This document shows, in pieces, positions 18,325 through 26,767 of a DNA stretch of 26,767 bases; the first letter of the stretch is position 1, and the number at the start of each line of letters is the position of its first letter. Position numbers and translations under genes: made by a program. The DNA comes from Flavobacteriaceae bacterium (lineage in GTDB: Bacteria; Bacteroidota; Bacteroidia; Flavobacteriales; Flavobacteriaceae), in the NCBI GenBank assembly GCA_015489265.1, contig WFZY01000029.1, positions 1 to 26,767 on the forward strand, in the 5' to 3' direction. Below the pieces are notes generated by a model. The model searched no databases. It saw nothing but the letters and a program-made list of their open reading frames with translations, and had not been told where the DNA came from.

Positions 18325-19336
18325 AAATATTTTAATAGCACCGCTCAACTGGGGACTGGGACATGCCGCCCGTTGCATCCCCATCATCAAAGATTTACAG
18401 CGGCAAGGACATCATATCATCATCGCTTCCGATGGCGGCGCCTTAAAATTATTACAGGAAGAATTTCCGCAATTGGAATTTGAAAAACTGCCCGCCTATA
18501 ACATTACTTATGCCAAAATATCGTGGTTGAACCGGTGGCATTTGCTCAAACAATTACCGCATATTATCCGGACGATGAAACAAGAACGTCAATTGACATA
18601 CCAACTCATCAAAAAATATGATTTAGATCTGATTATTTCGGATAATCGTTTCGGGGTTTATTCAAAAGACGTTAAATCGGTTTATATCACGCATCAACTC
18701 AAAGTTTTATCCGGTTGGGCGACTAAAATAACGACTTGGTTTCACGCCAAAATTTACAAGAAATACGATGAAATTTGGGTGCCGGATGTAGCAGGTAAAC
18801 CGAATTTGAGCGGCAAATTGGGACATTTTTCCAAAATAAATAATGATAAAATCAAATATATCGGTATTTTGAGCCGGATGACAGCAAAAGCATTACCTAA
18901 AAAATATGATGTCTTAGCCATTCTCTCCGGACCGGAACCACAACGCAGTCAATTGGAAAAAATATTGTTAAAGCAATTTAAAACATTAGACCTGAAAACC
19001 GGCATAATTCGTGGTATCGTCAGCAAGAATAAAAACGTTGAAAATCAACATAATACAACAATATATAATTATGTTACCGGCAAGGAATTGGAACAACTGG
19101 TCAATCAATCAGAAGCCGTTATTTGCCGTTCGGGATATACGTCGGTGATGGATATGGCAAGTATGCACAAAAAAGTGCTGATGATACCGACGCCCGGACA
19201 AGATGAACAGCAATATTTGGCACAACATTTAGCCGAAATTTTTCAAATAAAAATAGTAGAACAAAAACATTTATGGATAGATTTTGATGTATTAAATCAA
19301 TTAACTCATCTTAATTTACCAAAAGACCAATCTTAA
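18311..19336 (+). CDS. GT-B glycosyltransferase, GT28/MurG-like family, substrate unknown
   Basis: APLNWGLGHAARC, LSGPEPQR, CRSGYTSVMD and PTPGQDEQ. Confidence 0.8.
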   Translation: MRQSKNILIAPLNWGLGHAARCIPIIKDLQRQGHHIIIASDGGALKLLQEEFPQLEFEKLPAYNITYAKISWLNRWHLLKQLPHIIRTMKQERQLTYQLIKKYDLDLIISDNRFGVYSKDVKSVYITHQLKVLSGWATKITTWFHAKIYKKYDEIWVPDVAGKPNLSGKLGHFSKINNDKIKYIGILSRMTAKALPKKYDVLAILSGPEPQRSQLEKILLKQFKTLDLKTGIIRGIVSKNKNVENQHNTTIYNYVTGKELEQLVNQSEAVICRSGYTSVMDMASMHKKVLMIPTPGQDEQQYLAQHLAEIFQIKIVEQKHLWIDFDVLNQLTHLNLPKDQS

Positions 19337-20217
19337 AAGTGCTTTTGAATTAATCCGGCTAAAAATTGCGCAAAGTCCGGATGGTCATTTAAACAATTAA
19401 CTACTTGATAATCTTTTATTTGAAAATGCTTAGCTATTTCAGCATATTCGATTTTCAGTTCAAAATCGGTTTCGGAATTGTCTATCAAAAACGAAATGGG
19501 ATAAATTACCACCTTTTCGTTTTTAAAACCCGCTAAAACTTCTTCCAAATAAGGTTTTTGCCATTTTACCGGACCTAAACGGGACTGAAAACCCACCGAA
19601 ATGGACTTAAAATCACCCAGTAAATTTTTTAATATCTCAACGTGTTCATAAATCTGTTTCACATAAGGGTCACCCTTTTTGATAATGTATTGCGGCAATC
19701 CGTGCGCCGAAAAAATCAAATGATAATCTGACGGTGTTTTAATTTGACTTAAAATGGTATTTTTTATCAACAAATTATAAGCCGGTTCCTTGTAGAAAGC
19801 CGGTACCATCTTGATATTTCCTTTAAAATTCAAGGATTCTATTTCATCTAAAATACTACCGGTGGTGGTAGTGGAATAATGCGGATACATCGGTACTACC
19901 AATACTTCATCATAAGTATCGGTTACATCTTGCAGATAAGGTTTGGTGTAGCGCATACTCAACGCTACATCATAATCCGTTAAAACTTTCAGACGTTTTA
20001 CCAGTTTTTCCGTCCAAGCATATATGGCACTGCCACCGATTTTTTCATAGTTTTTCCAAACTTTTTTATAGCGAAAATTGGAAAGCACAATTGACAAGGG
20101 AAACCTTACAAGTCCGGGAATAATCCGTTTGTCCCTAAACATATTTTTTAGAAATAATTTCAATTCGGCGGGTGTTCCGGCACCGCCCATATTGGATAAA
20201 ACCACGAGCTTTTTCAT
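19333..20217 (-). CDS. hemH: Ferrochelatase
   Basis: NMGG, PMYPHYSTTT, FSAHGLP, FQSRLGPVKW and SFLIDNSET. ATG 20217 overlaps the upstream TGA; the ORF track starts at TTG 20220. Confidence 0.95.
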   Translation of the reverse strand: MKKLVVLSNMGGAGTPAELKLFLKNMFRDKRIIPGLVRFPLSIVLSNFRYKKVWKNYEKIGGSAIYAWTEKLVKRLKVLTDYDVALSMRYTKPYLQDVTDTYDEVLVVPMYPHYSTTTTGSILDEIESLNFKGNIKMVPAFYKEPAYNLLIKNTILSQIKTPSDYHLIFSAHGLPQYIIKKGDPYVKQIYEHVEILKNLLGDFKSISVGFQSRLGPVKWQKPYLEEVLAGFKNEKVVIYPISFLIDNSETDFELKIEYAEIAKHFQIKDYQVVNCLNDHPDFAQFLAGLIQKHF

Positions 20218-21557
20218 CAATCCGATAGTTTTTGAGCGGTTTTGTATGCTTGTGCTACCCTGTCGGCAATACCGATACCGTCTTTGATGTTGCCCCGCAG
20301 TAATAGTCCCTGATACCTGTTTTCGATTGCAGCAATGCTGTCTAAACGTTGCTTGGTATCTACACCATATTGCGCTATGGCTTTCGGATGTCGGCTGATT
20401 TCAATCAAATCCGGATGAAAAACATCCAATTGCATCACATTTTTGAAATCCGGGGCTATTGTTTGGATAAGTGCTTCATCATCAAGCTGCAACATTTCCG
20501 GTTTTTTAATACCGCCCGCAAAGACCGAAAAAAAGGCACCACCTTCGGGCGCTCGGTTGGAAAATTGCGATGACATAAACAAAATACCCAAAATATTTTT
20601 TCGTTCTTTAGTAGGAATTAAACCGCCAAAAGCATCTAACTTTATGCCTTTCCATTGTTTGAAACCCAATGATATTTCAACCACGGGTGCATATAATAAA
20701 TTTTGAACCGGCAGACATAAATCCGGTGCCGCAAAGGGTAATATTTTTACTGTTTCTGCTGCATTTACAGTAGTAACCACGTGTGTAAATTTTTGCCCGT
20801 TTACACGAAAACGATGGGACGATTCATAAATAATTTCAATATCCAGTTGATTCAATAAAATATTTTCACGCCCCACTTTTTGCACTAGCGCATCGGTTAA
20901 AGCTTGCAAACCGTTGGCAAATGAAAAAATCCGCTTGTTTACCTTTTTTTTGTATGCGTCGCCGCGTTCTTTGGCGATTTTTATACTTCCTTTGATAAAA
21001 CCGCCATATTTATCTTCCAAATTATAAAGTTTCGGAAAAGCATATTTGGTTACCAAATAATGCGGATCGCCGGCATAAACCCCCGACACAAACGGATCAA
21101 TGGCATAGTCCAAAAAACTTTTACCCAAACGTCTTACAACTGTATCGGCTAAGCGTTCGGTTTCGGTATTCCCTTTTTTTCTAAAATATTCGCCGGCTAC
21201 TTTTAACTTGTCTTTCCAAGTAAACAAGGGCGTCGCAATTGCCGATTTAAATCCCGAAGGTAATGGTTGCCACTTGCCGTTTTTCCAAATCAAGCGTTTT
21301 TTGGCGACTTCATCGGCATATTGCACAGTGGCAATATCCGAAATCTCTTCCAGCAAATCGGCTATTTCCAAATTGGCAACTACACCGGTATTGGGTCCTT
21401 TTTCCAAGATAAAATCACCTGTTTTTTTGGATTGTATAACCCCGCCCGAACGATGATTTTTTTCAAAAATCACAAAGGGAATTCCTGCTTTTTTAAGCCG
21501 GAACGCCAAAGTTAAACCGGTAAGTCCCGCACCGATGATTGCCACATTGTTTTTCAT
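20217..21557 (-). CDS. hemY: HemY-type FAD-dependent protoporphyrinogen oxidase (PgoX; often annotated hemG)
   Basis: Dinucleotide fold IIGAGLTGL..EK...GG, EKGPN, DPFVSGVYAGDP and GIGIADRV; 446 aa, too long for flavodoxin-type HemG. Confidence 0.92.
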   Translation of the reverse strand: MKNNVAIIGAGLTGLTLAFRLKKAGIPFVIFEKNHRSGGVIQSKKTGDFILEKGPNTGVVANLEIADLLEEISDIATVQYADEVAKKRLIWKNGKWQPLPSGFKSAIATPLFTWKDKLKVAGEYFRKKGNTETERLADTVVRRLGKSFLDYAIDPFVSGVYAGDPHYLVTKYAFPKLYNLEDKYGGFIKGSIKIAKERGDAYKKKVNKRIFSFANGLQALTDALVQKVGRENILLNQLDIEIIYESSHRFRVNGQKFTHVVTTVNAAETVKILPFAAPDLCLPVQNLLYAPVVEISLGFKQWKGIKLDAFGGLIPTKERKNILGILFMSSQFSNRAPEGGAFFSVFAGGIKKPEMLQLDDEALIQTIAPDFKNVMQLDVFHPDLIEISRHPKAIAQYGVDTKQRLDSIAAIENRYQGLLLRGNIKDGIGIADRVAQAYKTAQKLSD

Positions 21558-21560
21558 TTT

Positions 21561-22940
21561 TTAAAGTGCTTTTGAAAAATTCTTTTTATTAGTTTTCATA
21601 TTCGGGTCAAATGCCGCTGCAATAATTCGCATAAAAAATTGTCCTTTGGGCGTCAATTTCAATTGATGATTCGAAAAATGTAAAAATCCTTCGGCTTCAT
21701 ATTGTCGTAAGCTAACTAAATCCACTTGTGTAATCTCATAAATTTCTTTTAAACTTTTGCCATATTCCAATGCGATATCCGGCAACGATACTGCCATATT
21801 ACACATAATATCCTCGATGATTTTTCTGATAATTTTTTCTTCGGGTGATACCAAATAATATTTTTCAACAGCAAACTCGCCACGGTTTATGGCTTCTTCA
21901 TATTTTTTCAAGTCCTTGGTATTTTGCAGATAAGCATTTTCCATTTGACTAATACCGCTAACCCCCAAAGCATAAACTTGCCCGGTGGTTTCCAAGGTGC
22001 AATAACCTTGAAAGTTGCGATGTAATTTCTTGTTTTTCAAAGCAATACTTAAATCGTCATCGGGCTTGGCAAAATGGTCTAAACCAATGATTTCATAATT
22101 ATTTTCGGACAACAACCGGTAGGCGGTTTCAAACAATTCGATTTTTTCTTTGGCAGTAGGCAAACCGTATTTTTCCAAAGATTTTTGTTGCTTTTTAATC
22201 CAAGGCACGTGCGCATAAGAAAAAACAGCCATCCGGTCGGGATTTAAAGCAAGCGCATTTTGCATAGTTTCTTTGTAAGAATCCAAAGTTTGATAGGGCA
22301 AACCATATATAAAATCAAGATTTAAAGACAGATTTTCAAACGATTGGATGTATGAGACCATTTCTTCTATGGGCATCAAAGGTTTTTCGCGATGTACGGT
22401 TTCCAAAACCTTGTCGGAAAAATCTTGAACGCCGAAACTCAACCGGTTAAAACCCATTTCCACCAATTTATCCACATAAATTTTGGTAAGGTGTGCCGGA
22501 TGACATTCCATAGCCACTTCGGGCGCAGTAATAAAATCAAAATGTTTGTGCAAACGCTTCATAACACGTTCAACATCCTCAACAGGCAAATAATTAGGCG
22601 TTCCCCCACCCCAATGCACCTGTGACACCTTACGGTTTTTATCTAAAAGCGCTGCCAACAAGTCAATTTCTTTTAACAAGGTATCAACATAGCGACGCAT
22701 CGTTTCCTTGTTTTGGGTGATATGCGTGTTGCAACCGCAATACAAACAAAGCTGTCCGCAAAAGGGAATATGTATGTACAACGAAATATTTTGGGGCTGA
22801 TGCTTATTTGATTCGACAATAATTTGCTTTATATCCGGGGTGTTTTTTCCGGTTTCTTTAAAATAATTTGCCGGTGGATAACTGGTATAACGCGGGGTCG
22901 GAATATTATATTTTTCAAAAAGTTCAACTTGAAATTTCAT
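21561..22940 (-). CDS. hemN: Oxygen-independent coproporphyrinogen III dehydrogenase (radical SAM)
   Basis: PRYTSYP, YIHIPFCGQLCLYCGC (CX3CX2C), HWGGGTP, GLDHF and RNFQGY; no HemW HNxxYW motif. The start is set at MKFQVE (22940) rather than 22976. Confidence 0.93.
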   Translation of the reverse strand: MKFQVELFEKYNIPTPRYTSYPPANYFKETGKNTPDIKQIIVESNKHQPQNISLYIHIPFCGQLCLYCGCNTHITQNKETMRRYVDTLLKEIDLLAALLDKNRKVSQVHWGGGTPNYLPVEDVERVMKRLHKHFDFITAPEVAMECHPAHLTKIYVDKLVEMGFNRLSFGVQDFSDKVLETVHREKPLMPIEEMVSYIQSFENLSLNLDFIYGLPYQTLDSYKETMQNALALNPDRMAVFSYAHVPWIKKQQKSLEKYGLPTAKEKIELFETAYRLLSENNYEIIGLDHFAKPDDDLSIALKNKKLHRNFQGYCTLETTGQVYALGVSGISQMENAYLQNTKDLKKYEEAINRGEFAVEKYYLVSPEEKIIRKIIEDIMCNMAVSLPDIALEYGKSLKEIYEITQVDLVSLRQYEAEGFLHFSNHQLKLTPKGQFFMRIIAAAFDPNMKTNKKNFSKAL

Positions 22941-24141
22941 ATTGTAAAGTTTTTTTATAAAATAAAGGAATGACAATCAGCAAGATAACACTCATAACCA
23001 AACCGGCAAGATATAAACCGGTATAACCCAACATATGAGATAATTTGCCACTTAATACCGCCACAAAAAGACTGCCGATATGCGCCAAGACAATTTGGAT
23101 AGTAAAATCGGTGCCTTCGCGTCCGGCTCTAATTCGGTTCATCAAAAAAGCATAAACAAAAACCGTGGTCATACTATAAATACCCCAAATACCGATAATA
23201 CCAATCTGCAACATCAGGTAAGACGGACTTTGACGACTGAGTAGATAAAAATACAAATTAACGGCAAGAAAAAGGTATAAAAGCCATTTCAATAAAAACT
23301 TTTGACCTTTGATTTTAATCAATTTGCCGGCTAAATAGGCAAAAACGACACCCGAAGCCGGACCAATCAAACCCGAATAAATCCCTATTTGTTTGATATT
23401 ATAACCCAAATCAACCATCCAAGGTTTGAGCATAGTCAATATACCGATAATTGCCGAATATATCAAAAGTAATAAGCCGACGCGATATTTAATATGTGGC
23501 TGATTAAAAAAACTGAATATATCGCCGAAACTTACTTTCGGGATATTTTGATGCGACGGAAATATTTTTTTAGGTCGATACAATCCTAGCGGGACAAGCG
23601 CCAATACAACAAAAATTGCAAGTGCGACAATCAATATTTTCCAACCGAAATAATGGTAAATAATCAACAGTAATCCGCTGCCGACCAGAGTTCCCAAAAA
23701 TTGACCGATGGTTTGTGTGCTGCCGCCCGGTCCTCTTTCGTTTTTATTTAAAATCAAATAAGAAAAGGCATCCGTGGCAATATCTTGCGTAGCCGATGCC
23801 GTAAATGCCAATAACAAAAGTACGACGATGAGCTTAAAATCGGTTTGTAAATCAAAAAAAGCAATGCTCAAAATAACCAGTGCATAAAACAATTCAGACC
23901 CGAAAATCCATTTTTTGTATGACGAAATGTTCCCTTGTGATGTGTCCACCAAAGGCGCCCAAGCAAATTTTAACAACCACGGCAGTTTGACCAACTGAAT
24001 CAATCCGATAGATGTCAAAGAAAAATGATGCTCACGCATAATCACCGGCAATACCGTTGAGAAAAAACTCATAGGTATGGATTGTGCCAAATACAAATTT
24101 AGCATCACGCCGTATTTGATATGTTCTTTGGTTTGATTCAT
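22924..24141 (-). CDS. MFS permease, RhtX/FptX/YbtX (AmpG-like) family
   Basis: LYLAQSIP..F..VLPVIMR, LPWLLKFAWAPLVD, SATQDIATDA and GREGTDFT; about 12 hydrophobic segments. The start is set at MNQTKE; the gene overlaps hemN by 17 nt. Confidence 0.82.
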   Translation of the reverse strand: MNQTKEHIKYGVMLNLYLAQSIPMSFFSTVLPVIMREHHFSLTSIGLIQLVKLPWLLKFAWAPLVDTSQGNISSYKKWIFGSELFYALVILSIAFFDLQTDFKLIVVLLLLAFTASATQDIATDAFSYLILNKNERGPGGSTQTIGQFLGTLVGSGLLLIIYHYFGWKILIVALAIFVVLALVPLGLYRPKKIFPSHQNIPKVSFGDIFSFFNQPHIKYRVGLLLLIYSAIIGILTMLKPWMVDLGYNIKQIGIYSGLIGPASGVVFAYLAGKLIKIKGQKFLLKWLLYLFLAVNLYFYLLSRQSPSYLMLQIGIIGIWGIYSMTTVFVYAFLMNRIRAGREGTDFTIQIVLAHIGSLFVAVLSGKLSHMLGYTGLYLAGLVMSVILLIVIPLFYKKTLQYEISS

Positions 24142-24207
24142 TTTGAATTGTGTTATTTCTCGGCTATTTAGTTTTAATAAAAACATTGTTTTCTAACAAC
24201 GTTTTTA

Positions 24208-24238
24208 GACCTGGCAGGTTTTGGAAACCTGCTAGGTC
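24208..24238. repeat. REP-like palindrome
   Basis: GACCTGGCAGGTTT-TGG-AAACCTGCTAGGTC forms a 14-bp stem with one G-T pair. It resembles a recurring Bacteroidota ACCTG.CAGGTTT..AAACCTG..AGGT palindrome (from memory). Confidence 0.75.
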
Positions 24239-24304
24239 AAGCAATCTAAATAGTCTGCTTTACATCTTTTAATAATTTTATAGTTTTCAAACCTACCGGA
24301 TTGG

Positions 24305-26371
24305 TTAGAACAAATTAACTTTTGCATAGATTCCAAAACTAACGGGTCTGGACAATTCGGCGTATGCATTATGTAATGTCGAAATGCTAAAATAGTATTG
24401 AATATATTTTTCGTTGGTCAGGTTTTGTGCCCACAATCCGATACTGGCATTTTTCATTTTCAAACTAATGTTGGCATTCAAGATGCGATAAGGTTTCTGA
24501 TAAGTATCATTGCCAACCGTCCAATAATAACGCCCGTAACGATTACAGTTTAAATGGAAAAGCACATATTTGAATGTATCACTTTTTAGGCGCCATTTGT
24601 AATTGGCATTAACACCCAAAGTATATTCGGGAACAAAAGGCAGTTTATTACTACTGTAATCCGTAGAGTCATTGTATTTATAGGTAATAAAATGCGCATC
24701 GGTGTAACCGTAATTGATACCCAAATTAAAATCGCGCGTAAACCGGTAAGCCGTTTCGATTTCCACCCCTTTGCTTACCGATTTTCCGGCATTTTTTATC
24801 ATAAATCCCCTTCCGCTCGGCACCGATTGCAATACCTGTTGATTTTTCCAATCAATATAAAACACACTTGTATTGAATATCAACTTATTGTTTAAACCGT
24901 TGAATTTGATTCCGGTTTCGTAATTAATGCTATATTCCGGCGCATAGGTTTCGTCTTCATCCCGTTCTATGGTCGAATTAAAACCACCGGCTTTGTAGCC
25001 TTTGGTAACACCGGCATAAGCCGTCCAATGTGCATTGGGCAAATAGCTAATGCTAAATTTAGGAAGGAACTGATTAAAATTTAATTGATGAACAAAATCG
25101 TCCTTATGTATTTTATGACCACTTACCAACAAATCATAATTATAATTCAACGACGACCCTTCCAAATCATATCGCAATCCGGTGGTGAACAAAAATTTGT
25201 TCCACTCATAAGAAATTTGTCCGTAAGCGGCATAAGCATTGATTTTTTGGTCATAATCCTTTAAAATGGTCATTTTACCATGGCTTGTAGTTATATCAAA
25301 ATCAACGTCCTTCAATAAATGCCGTTGCAAAGCAAATAAACCGCCAATCCATTGAAAAGGTTTTTCACCTTTGGATTTGGCATATAATTCCTGAACAAAC
25401 GCCTGATTGTTTCTTGCCATATTGACCACATAAATATCATTTGGTGTAAAGTCTTGATCTACCAAAAAAGTATCTTTCAACTTTTGGTAACTCGCAGAAA
25501 AATTCAATTCATAACCGGAATGTTTGTATTTTAAATGCAATCCTGTCGAACCGAAATCACGGTCGTATTTACTCGGTTGGTTATAATTAATATCGCTAAC
25601 CTTTTGATTTTGAATATCATAAATACCATAAGCAAAACCAAATTGGTTATTCCGTTCGTAGTTGCCTAATAATTTAAGTGTCCAATTATCGCTTAAATTA
25701 GCTTTGTATTTCAATCTTCCGCCATAAGTTTTTTCGGCATCCACTTTTTTATTGTCAAATTGATTGACATAATAGCCGTCATCATTTTTGTAATAACCGT
25801 CAAGTAAAAAAGCCGAATTTTCCGTTACCGGTTGGTTATAGCCGAAACTTCCTTTAAATTGATTGAACTTGCCATAATCAAGCTTAATGTCCGCTTTTCT
25901 TTTTTGAACGGGATCGGGTGTATAAATTTTTATCAAACCACCCATCGTATTGCGTCCGTATAAAGTGCCTTGCGGACCACGCAAAACCTCAATTTGTTTA
26001 ATATCGGCAAATTCAAAATTAATAGCGCCTCTATCAAAATACGGAATATCATCCACATAAATCCCCACCGAAGGTTCATCCTTACTAACCCCGATTCCTC
26101 TTATAAATATATCCGTATTCAAGCGGGCACCGTGCTTCGGAATAAACAGGTTAGGTACCAAACCGTTGAGATCGGTTACATCCTCTACTTTTTGAATGTC
26201 GATTTTTTGTGCTTTAAGCGCCGTTACCGAAACAGGAATCTGTTGTATCTTTTGATTCTGCTTGGTTAAATCAATTCTTACCTCGTTAAGATTGATGGTG
26301 TCTTTTTGTTTTTGTTGGGCAAATGCACCAAAAGCCATCATCAAAAATACTATTAAAAAAGTTGGTTTCAT
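24305..26371 (-). CDS. TonB-dependent receptor, FyuA/pesticin-receptor-like
   Basis: Signal peptide ending AFA, TonB-box-like DTINLNEV, plug IFIRGIG...IEVLRGPQGTLYGRNTMGG, GYKAGGFN, and a C-terminal Phe; 688 aa. Confidence 0.9.
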   Translation of the reverse strand: MKPTFLIVFLMMAFGAFAQQKQKDTINLNEVRIDLTKQNQKIQQIPVSVTALKAQKIDIQKVEDVTDLNGLVPNLFIPKHGARLNTDIFIRGIGVSKDEPSVGIYVDDIPYFDRGAINFEFADIKQIEVLRGPQGTLYGRNTMGGLIKIYTPDPVQKRKADIKLDYGKFNQFKGSFGYNQPVTENSAFLLDGYYKNDDGYYVNQFDNKKVDAEKTYGGRLKYKANLSDNWTLKLLGNYERNNQFGFAYGIYDIQNQKVSDINYNQPSKYDRDFGSTGLHLKYKHSGYELNFSASYQKLKDTFLVDQDFTPNDIYVVNMARNNQAFVQELYAKSKGEKPFQWIGGLFALQRHLLKDVDFDITTSHGKMTILKDYDQKINAYAAYGQISYEWNKFLFTTGLRYDLEGSSLNYNYDLLVSGHKIHKDDFVHQLNFNQFLPKFSISYLPNAHWTAYAGVTKGYKAGGFNSTIERDEDETYAPEYSINYETGIKFNGLNNKLIFNTSVFYIDWKNQQVLQSVPSGRGFMIKNAGKSVSKGVEIETAYRFTRDFNLGINYGYTDAHFITYKYNDSTDYSSNKLPFVPEYTLGVNANYKWRLKSDTFKYVLFHLNCNRYGRYYWTVGNDTYQKPYRILNANISLKMKNASIGLWAQNLTNEKYIQYYFSISTLHNAYAELSRPVSFGIYAKVNLF

Positions 26372-26390: not shown

Positions 26391-26398
26391 CAAAAGTA
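26391..26398 (-). promoter_or_regulatory. -7 element for the receptor gene
   Basis: TACTTTTG, 19 nt upstream of the ATG. The nearest TTTG is only 14 nt away, so there is no canonical -33. Confidence 0.6.
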
Positions 26399-26415: not shown

Positions 26416-26487
26416 AAAATAACGATAGCTGATAACAAATGTCGAGTAATCAAAGTAAAAATATCGAAAACTTAAACTAAAATATCG
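26416..26487. promoter_or_regulatory. Four phased direct repeats, candidate regulator sites
   Basis: AAAATAACG (26416), CAAATGTCG (26436), AAAATATCG (26458) and AAAATATCG (26479); spacings 20, 22 and 21 bp. Confidence 0.55.
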
Positions 26488-26767
26488 CTTTAAACCAATA
26501 AAGGAACCTTTATTACAATTAGCAAACCATCACATCGTAAAGACTTGAACGGGAAAATGTTATTTACATTTATCAAAACAAAAAAATTAAACATTAATTC
26601 ACTTAACCCTTACATCCGCAACAAGGTACAAAAATTTAAAAAATAGACTTTTCCAATATTTATTGTGTAAAATCTAGCGTAAAAATAGTCGGTAGATTCA
26701 ACTTAAAACTCATTAGGAACAGTTTTCAACACTGCAAGTATGATTATGTCATTAGGCGGTTTAAGAG

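Follow-up and report, generated by a model that had tools for sequence, protein, structure and literature searches.

Three described siderophore systems, FyuA/YbtX (yersiniabactin), FptA/FptX (pyochelin) and RhtA/RhtX (rhizobactin 1021), rely on a TonB-dependent outer-membrane receptor and a single permease of the major facilitator superfamily (MFS), without an ABC transporter. The same combination of transporters is found in the locus that we consider here, which lies in a 26,767-nt stretch of DNA (contig WFZY01000029.1 of a Flavobacteriaceae bacterium; hereafter, the window) and joins a receptor and an MFS permease to three late heme-synthesis genes, hemN, hemY and hemH. A second group of relevant systems comprises organisms that keep only part of the heme pathway. 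Porphyromonas gingivalis has a partial pathway consisting of HemD, HemN/W, HemG and HemH, for which the Hus system has been suggested to import precursors; that this organism salvages coproporphyrinogen III or protoporphyrin IX through a TonB-dependent receptor is an untested hypothesis (PMC12094164, PMC13096392). According to the same reviews, both the retention of late heme enzymes by many Bacteroidota that have lost the early ones and the route by which metal-free porphyrins enter the cell are unexplained (PMC12094164, PMC13096392). The Leishmaniinae and Strigomonadinae, two groups of trypanosomatids, carry out just the final three steps in heme synthesis, and it has been proposed that they import coproporphyrinogen III from a partner (PMC4870792).

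We consider it fairly probable that the five-gene locus is an operon for the salvage of heme precursors, which imports a late precursor made by neighboring organisms and then finishes heme. In the proposed mechanism, a late tetrapyrrole intermediate would cross the outer membrane through the FyuA-like TonB-dependent receptor and the inner membrane by way of the AmpG/FptX-like MFS permease. HemN would then convert coproporphyrinogen III to protoporphyrinogen IX, HemY would oxidize this to protoporphyrin IX and HemH would insert iron to yield heme b. In this flavobacterium from hydrothermal vents, the operon would replace the de novo pathway that relatives have kept. The genes of the module are presumably co-transcribed, and transport is presumably inward.

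The locus may be compared with each of these systems in turn. Unlike the three siderophore pairs, the receptor and permease of the module fall below the cut-offs of the corresponding families, have no siderophore-synthesis or regulator genes nearby and have hem genes as their partners. The likeness to P. gingivalis is that of a member of the Bacteroidota that lacks hemA, hemB, hemC and hemE and has kept late enzymes as well as HemD. However, P. gingivalis has scattered genes, a HemW-like homologue of HemN, HemG as its oxidase and a proposed importer (HusA/HusB) that is unrelated and unlinked, whereas the present locus unites the genes for a bona fide HemN and for a HemY with those for a dedicated receptor and a dedicated MFS permease in a single operon. 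With the trypanosomatids the module shares the loss of the early pathway and the presence of the last three enzymes, kept or acquired by gene transfer; they differ in being eukaryotes with enzymes of the HemF and HemG types, with unclustered genes and with an importer that has not been identified (PMC4870792). An initial annotation of the window, made from the sequence alone, knew of no earlier description of either of the arrangements that it proposed. A full-text search of the literature library found no paper describing a receptor-MFS-hemNYH operon, although precursor salvage by HemN/HemG/HemH had already been hypothesized for P. gingivalis (PMC12094164). We favor the view that the module is a cofactor-precursor salvage operon assembled from known families.

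Architecture of the locus and its heme enzymes

The five genes lie on the minus strand and span positions 19333-26371 of the window. First in the direction of transcription is the FyuA-like TonB-dependent outer-membrane receptor (24305-26371; 688 aa, with plug and barrel domains), followed by the MFS permease of the AmpG/RhtX/FptX superfamily (22924-24141; 405 aa, the form given by the database call). These are followed by hemN, encoding the oxygen-independent coproporphyrinogen III dehydrogenase (21561-22940; 459 aa), hemY, encoding protoporphyrinogen IX oxidase (20217-21557; 446 aa), and hemH, encoding a protoporphyrin ferrochelatase of a short, Campylobacterota-like type (19333-20217; 294 aa). 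As read from the sequence, 163 nt separate the receptor stop (24305) from the MFS ATG (24141). The MFS gene and hemN overlap by 17 nt (MFS stop ending at 22924, hemN ATG at 22940), hemN and hemY are 3 nt apart (TAA stop at 21563-21561, hemY ATG at 21557) and hemY overlaps hemH by 1 nt in the sequence TGATG (20219-20215). It is thus to hemN, and not to hemH, that the permease gene is translationally coupled. The locus ends at a convergent glycosyltransferase gene. Besides the five genes, the window holds rpoBC, ribosomal protein genes, tuf, trmB and genes for an acyltransferase and a glycosyltransferase; among the window genes there are none for siderophore synthesis, an ABC transporter or early heme synthesis. 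The initial annotation had reported the same order and spacing, which proved exact on re-reading, and the same absences, which gene calls and family assignments confirmed.

The contig is one of 403 (C29) in a bin of 2.47 Mb from hydrothermal-vent metagenomes, estimated as 96.7% complete and 5.7% contaminated, with an N50 of 7.7 kb. A look for public sequencing runs turned up DNA runs from hydrothermal-vent metagenomes and no RNA run. Because the contig holds the only rpoB and rpoC genes of the bin and its GC content is close to that of the bin (0.379 vs 0.364 bin-wide), the locus can be taken as a chromosomal part of the organism.

Each of the three enzymes exceeds the cut-off of an equivalog family. 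HemN scores 490.2 bits with TIGR00538 (cut-off 324.95), compared with 162 for HemW and 179 for HutW. It carries the Radical_SAM and HemN_C domains, the CxxxCxxC motif as CGQLCLYC at residue 61 and a PRYTSYP N-terminus, and in a full-length alignment with E. coli HemN (1olt) it reaches an E value of 2e-91. HemY scores 259.6 bits with TIGR00562 (cut-off 97.85) and is nearer to Myxococcus PgoX (2ivd, 3.7e-47) and plant PPO (1sez, 3e-43) than to Bacillus CgoX (3i6d, 6.6e-31). HemH scores 228.7 bits with TIGR00109 (cut-off 124.6) and matches the human protoporphyrin IX ferrochelatase at 7e-29, as against 6e-12 and 8e-11 for the coproporphyrin ferrochelatases (CpfC). By these matches hemN, hemY and hemH are of the classical protoporphyrin-branch types and together would lead from coproporphyrinogen III to heme b.

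The hemH gene of the window is the sole ferrochelatase gene of the genome. Its product is most similar, among named homologues, to those of the vent Campylobacterota Lebetimonas, Caminibacter and Nautilia (52-59% identity), and is only about 30% identical to HemH of its own family and 25-30% identical to the HemH encoded in Bacteroidales modules. This points to a cross-phylum replacement of hemH inside the module.

Recurrence of the module and loss of the early pathway

A scan of a genome collection yielded 589 relatives, and about 80 loci were fetched from these for a comparison of neighborhoods. Across the 80 loci the conserved genes were the MFS permease (79), the receptor (73), hemN (71), hemY (67) and hemH (at least 48), and no others. 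They lie on one strand in the order receptor-MFS-hemN-hemY(-hemH), the flanks are unrelated and nearly all absent members fall at contig ends; the estimated gaps in the relatives have medians of 0, -11, 13 and 14 nt along the module. Since this order recurs in essentially all 80 related loci that have enough flanking sequence, the linkage is far beyond chance. The initial annotation had named separate transcription of the hem genes from the transporters, together with a lack of recurring linkage between such transporter pairs and hem genes, as grounds for abandoning its proposal, and the survey instead found the pair tied to hem genes in all related loci. In other families of Bacteroidia, MFS matches of 210-270 bits proved to be separate AmpG-like paralogues, 29-36% identical and without receptor or hem neighbors, and this group was left out of the module counts. 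Because the paralogues lack these neighbors, the linkage is specific to this MFS orthologue group.

The module was found in Prolixibacteraceae (Maribellus, Mariniphaga, Draconibacterium and Puteibacter), Paludibacter, Lentimicrobiaceae, Marinifilaceae and Flavobacteriales, and most carriers come from vents and anoxic sediments. In a quick tree the Flavobacteriales copies nest within the diversity of the Bacteroidales (SH-aLRT 88-92), which fits their acquisition by gene transfer. Three loci labeled Omnitrophica, Thiohalospira and Chitinophaga (L036, L041 and L032, respectively) are also placed among the Bacteroidales by the MFS tree; mis-binning or recent transfer could explain this. Two loci may hold decaying copies of the module: in one, hemN is in two pieces (L034:10818-12293), and in the other (L066) it is missing between the MFS gene and hemY.

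The loosest member of the module is hemH: some loci have it before hemY, others have it in convergent orientation and others again lack it. The conserved core is receptor-MFS-hemN-hemY. Among 14 genomes whose module has no hemH beside it, 9 have no detectable ferrochelatase at all, their completeness being unknown (G330, G332, G339, G347, G369, G370, G374, G376 and G326, with loci L009, L011, L023, L035, L073, L074, L079, L082 and L077). In such organisms protoporphyrin might be the end product, or iron might be inserted by other means. The genes downstream of hemY in the loci without hemH are unrelated (RHS repeat, histidine kinase, nitroreductase, Leu/Phe transferase). Two of these loci encode, after hemY on the same strand and at the usual position of hemH, a roughly 150-aa protein with some four membrane helices and no family match (L009:8548-9009 and L011:4091-4540).

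We turn now to the early pathway. Searches for hemB (PF00490), hemE (PF01208, TIGR01464), hemC (PF01379) and hemA (PF05201) found none of these genes in the 96.7%-complete genome, although the same searches did recover a gene with a HEM4 domain, indicating that HemD is retained, and the ferrochelatase of the window. The initial annotation had proposed just such an inventory, holding that absence of the early genes would favor porphyrin salvage, and this was the outcome for hemA, hemB, hemC and hemE. That the organism needs heme follows from its genes for several heme-copper oxidases and for cytochrome bd. By comparison, in each of eight genomes sampled from this family hemE is present and the ferrochelatase is of the typical kind (about 333 bits), and a tblastn search with the hem blocks of these family relatives gave as its only match in this genome the HemH of the window, at 30%. 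The presence of hemE and the hem blocks in the family and the failure to find them here indicate that the module took the place of the de novo pathway in this lineage. Three other module-bearing Flavobacteriales bins (the genomes of L003, L006 and L004) are also missing hemE, and the two that were tested for hemB (those of L003 and L006) are missing that gene too.

It might be argued that a late-heme operon simply lies beside a receptor-permease pair by passive inheritance, with no functional link between them, and that the early genes were lost in assembly gaps. The fragmentation of the bin and the existence of carriers with hemE, which are discussed below, are in keeping with this argument. 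However, the joint absence of four early genes through gaps in so complete a bin is unlikely, and the other module-bearing Flavobacteriales bins also lack hemE and, where tested, hemB. Further, the flanks differ in nearly every locus and yet the five genes remain together with near-zero gaps, and the core has stayed intact where hemH was replaced or moved. An accidental association is accordingly very improbable.

The association with the loss of hemE extends well beyond this genome. In all, hemE was missing from 64 of 81 module-bearing genomes (a true hemE was found in 8 genomes of one set of 31 and in 9 of another set of 50), and hemB was missing from 19 of 30. One cultured carrier that lacks both genes is Bacteroidales bacterium 6E (the genome of L017). 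In an even sample of 301 Bacteroidia, a ferrochelatase was found in 207 genomes and hemE in 197. Five genomes of this sample, from five families, bear the module, and all five are ferrochelatase-positive and hemE-negative; among the 202 genomes that have a ferrochelatase and no module, hemE is missing from 11, which are mostly low-completeness bins. The Bacteroidia tallies include one unpublished genome, G094, in which hemH and hemE are both present, and no conclusion rests on it. In three genomes of a single genus (G040, G084 and G122, family f41), hemE and the module are both absent and each genome has a pair of ferrochelatase genes; this may be a further arrangement in which only late heme synthesis is kept, possibly served by some other importer.

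Strong purifying selection acts on each of the five genes. When this genome was compared with that of L003, both being without hemE, dN/dS ranged from 0.06 to 0.11 for the five genes, values that are rough because synonymous sites are near saturation. A ratio so far below 1 in the absence of hemE implies that hemN and hemY are working genes in organisms that are unable to make their substrate.

The transporter pair and its candidate cargo

Membership of the TonB-dependent receptor superfamily calls for an N-terminal plug followed by a 22-strand beta-barrel, together with a signal peptide. The receptor matches PF07715 with 66 bits (residues 42-145) and PF00593 with 150 bits (residues 165-651), and it has a hydrophobic N-terminus that ends in AFAQQ. 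At the level of subfamilies its best-scoring model is that of the TonB-siderophore receptors (TIGR01783), but with 183.5 bits it does not reach the cut-off of 223.5. The MFS permease behaves similarly. Its best named model is the RhtX/FptX family (TIGR02718), with 138.5 bits against a cut-off of 356.15, and it also falls short of the AmpG muropeptide permeases (TIGR00901, 126.4 bits against 350), matching the AmpG structure 8zgz with an E value of only 8e-22. Databases hold more than 2387 homologues of this permease, all of them unnamed, and a protein atlas search returned unnamed MFS clusters only.

A receptor of this kind might take up heme or a metal-coproporphyrin, in which case the hem genes would be housed with the transporters merely as members of a heme-supply regulon. 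The organism does need heme, and HmuY was not found in its genome. However, receptors for heme and hemoglobin are recognized by a score of at least 316.85 bits with TIGR01785 and by FRAP and NPNL motifs with a conserved histidine. The receptor scores 79 bits, and a motif search found neither FRAP nor NPNL in its sequence, as the initial annotation had maintained, nor near variants of them. In addition, an importer of finished heme would render hemN, hemY and hemH dispensable, yet these genes are under strong purifying selection in genomes without hemE. We judge heme import to be unlikely.

Several points weigh against precursor salvage as well. Among solved structures, the one most similar to the receptor is that of FyuA, the receptor for yersiniabactin (4epa, E 1.2e-45, over the full length), and the nearest named families of the permease transport siderophores and muropeptides. 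HemN acts on a reduced porphyrinogen, which oxidizes in air, and we know of no porphyrin reductase; a supply of reduced porphyrinogen is nevertheless plausible in vents and anoxic sediments. The bin is fragmented and 5.7% contaminated, and one syntenic contig breaks where relatives carry hemH. This contig (C226), the only syntenic one, starts 252 nt before that position, and the relatives are too divergent for a true deletion of the hem block typical of the family to be read from synteny. Lastly, 17 of the 81 carriers possess hemE and are prototrophs, which means that the module is not restricted to auxotrophs. Five prototrophic carriers were checked, and each has one ferrochelatase in its genome; in four of them the gene lies within the module or next to it, and in Puteibacter it is on a different contig. 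The module therefore also serves de novo synthesis.

The first of these points raises the question of whether the pair imports an iron chelate, the metal being destined for ferrochelatase and for the Fe-S cluster of HemN, with porphyrin entering in some other way. The relationship to FyuA, the identity of the best subfamily models (TonB-siderophore and RhtX/FptX) and the fact that in prototrophic carriers the module supplies the late heme enzymes speak for such an iron or metallophore importer. Yet both proteins lie below the curated cut-offs of the siderophore subfamilies. The conserved core does without hemH, and the lack of any ferrochelatase in 9 of the 14 genomes with a hemH-less module, together with the coupling of the MFS gene to hemN instead of hemH, is a pattern not expected of a device that feeds iron to ferrochelatase. 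Import of iron would also leave unexplained the purifying selection on hemN and hemY where hemE is absent. For these reasons we regard an iron importer as rather unlikely. The initial annotation had offered two models, and the one in which xenosiderophore iron is delivered to ferrochelatase is disfavored by the composition of the core and by the carriers without ferrochelatase. The other, porphyrin salvage, is strengthened by the absent early genes, the recurrent linkage and the enrichment of the module in genomes without hemE, and is tempered by the prototrophic carriers.

A salvage operon may be defined as one in which an importer is genetically coupled to finishing enzymes, in a genome that is without the upstream pathway and yet needs the cofactor. 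On the evidence of the genome sequence, the module combines this gene coupling with upstream loss and a need for heme, and it is from these features that we infer the transport of a precursor. The substrate that fits best would be coproporphyrinogen III, or else coproporphyrin III that is reduced after its uptake. Tentatively, the receptor-MFS pair could then represent the first case in bacteria of an importer dedicated to a heme precursor without metal, whether coproporphyrinogen III or coproporphyrin III.

Regulatory features and implications of the module

In most Bacteroidales versions of the module a small open reading frame (ORF) of about 110-145 aa is located on the same strand just upstream of the receptor gene (L022:6484-6822, L017:6234-6575, L019:6405-6758 and about 48 further loci). 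It has a conserved N-terminus, MFxFGIFxTHxPY, with one membrane helix, and a hypervariable middle. Of 58 such ORFs, 51 carry a C-terminal R-(P/A/G)-PP motif at a distance of 2-6 residues from the stop, and the variants of the motif are RPPP (37), RAPP (6), RGPP (6) and KPPP (2). Searches of Pfam and NCBIfam with these ORFs found no family. Leader peptides ending in RAPP or RGPP upstream of TonB-dependent receptors, such as CruR-BfrG, form a published class (PMC12992588, PMC10987492). The Bacteroidales ORF looks like a ribosome-arrest leader of this RAPP type, and differs from the published class in that RPPP is dominant and the downstream operon is one for heme supply.

In two of the five prototrophs that were checked, Mariniphaga sediminis (L094:14051-14398, minus strand) and Puteibacter (L095:3655-4014, plus strand), the early heme operon, which runs from hemA to hemE, has a leader of the same type directly upstream; in the other three (L092, L093 and L096) no leader was found before this operon. 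The sharing of a leader with the early hem operon places the module in a heme-supply regulon. It should be noted that a common leader, in suggesting control by heme status, also speaks for the import of heme discussed above. In the window itself no RPPP-type or RAPP-like leader was found upstream of the receptor. A 34-aa ORF on the minus strand (26490-26594) begins with MFNFF, which recalls the N-terminus of the leaders, and has no RPPP end; it may be the relic of a leader or a chance ORF.

Other features lie upstream of the receptor gene in the window. A candidate Bacteroidota -7 box, TAnnTTTG, is situated 20 nt upstream of the receptor ATG (26391-26398, minus strand). The evidence for this box is positional only, because the window as a whole shows no excess of TAnnTTTG matches over chance (45 vs 36.4 expected). 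Scans for sigma-70 promoters and terminators, using models that are ill-suited to Bacteroidota, gave counts at or below the expectation from shuffled sequence. Beyond the candidate promoter are three phased direct repeats of CGAYATTTK, 21-22 nt apart (26436-26487, minus strand). Three of the five CGAYATTTK matches in the whole window fall within this interval, and the two distal repeats are kept in the 83%-related locus L003, so these repeats are a candidate operator for a regulator.

The spacer between the receptor and MFS genes contains a palindromic hairpin (24207-24238, minus strand) with a folding energy of -27.6 kcal/mol (z -3.3), after which there is no U-tract. This hairpin is one instance of a palindromic repeat some 32 nt long, with the core AGCAGGTTT...AAACCTGC, that is present in dozens of copies genome-wide, on contigs C333, C277, C227, C47, C189, C156, C60 and others. 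On C189 and C156 the copies are arranged in tandem and recur about every 101 nt. The repeat is perhaps REP-like. The presence of a copy in the spacer accounts for the width of the receptor-MFS gap here, compared with the median of about 0 nt in the relatives.

Because two candidate transporter genes can now be named that are linked in an operon to the enzymes, and because some carriers are cultured, the question of precursor salvage is directly testable. If the proposal is correct, the module took over from the entire de novo pathway in this vent lineage, and FyuA-like receptors and AmpG/FptX-like permeases would gain a new class of substrate. The metagenomic scoring of heme auxotrophy would have to be revised, since a genome without hemE that bears the module would be that of a precursor user and not of a heme auxotroph. 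Hundreds of environmental species of Bacteroidota that appear to be heme auxotrophs would live on porphyrin intermediates leaked by their neighbors. Coproporphyrin(ogen) would thus become a public good shared among microbes, in an economy of tetrapyrrole cross-feeding comparable to the sharing of B12 and thiamine precursors.

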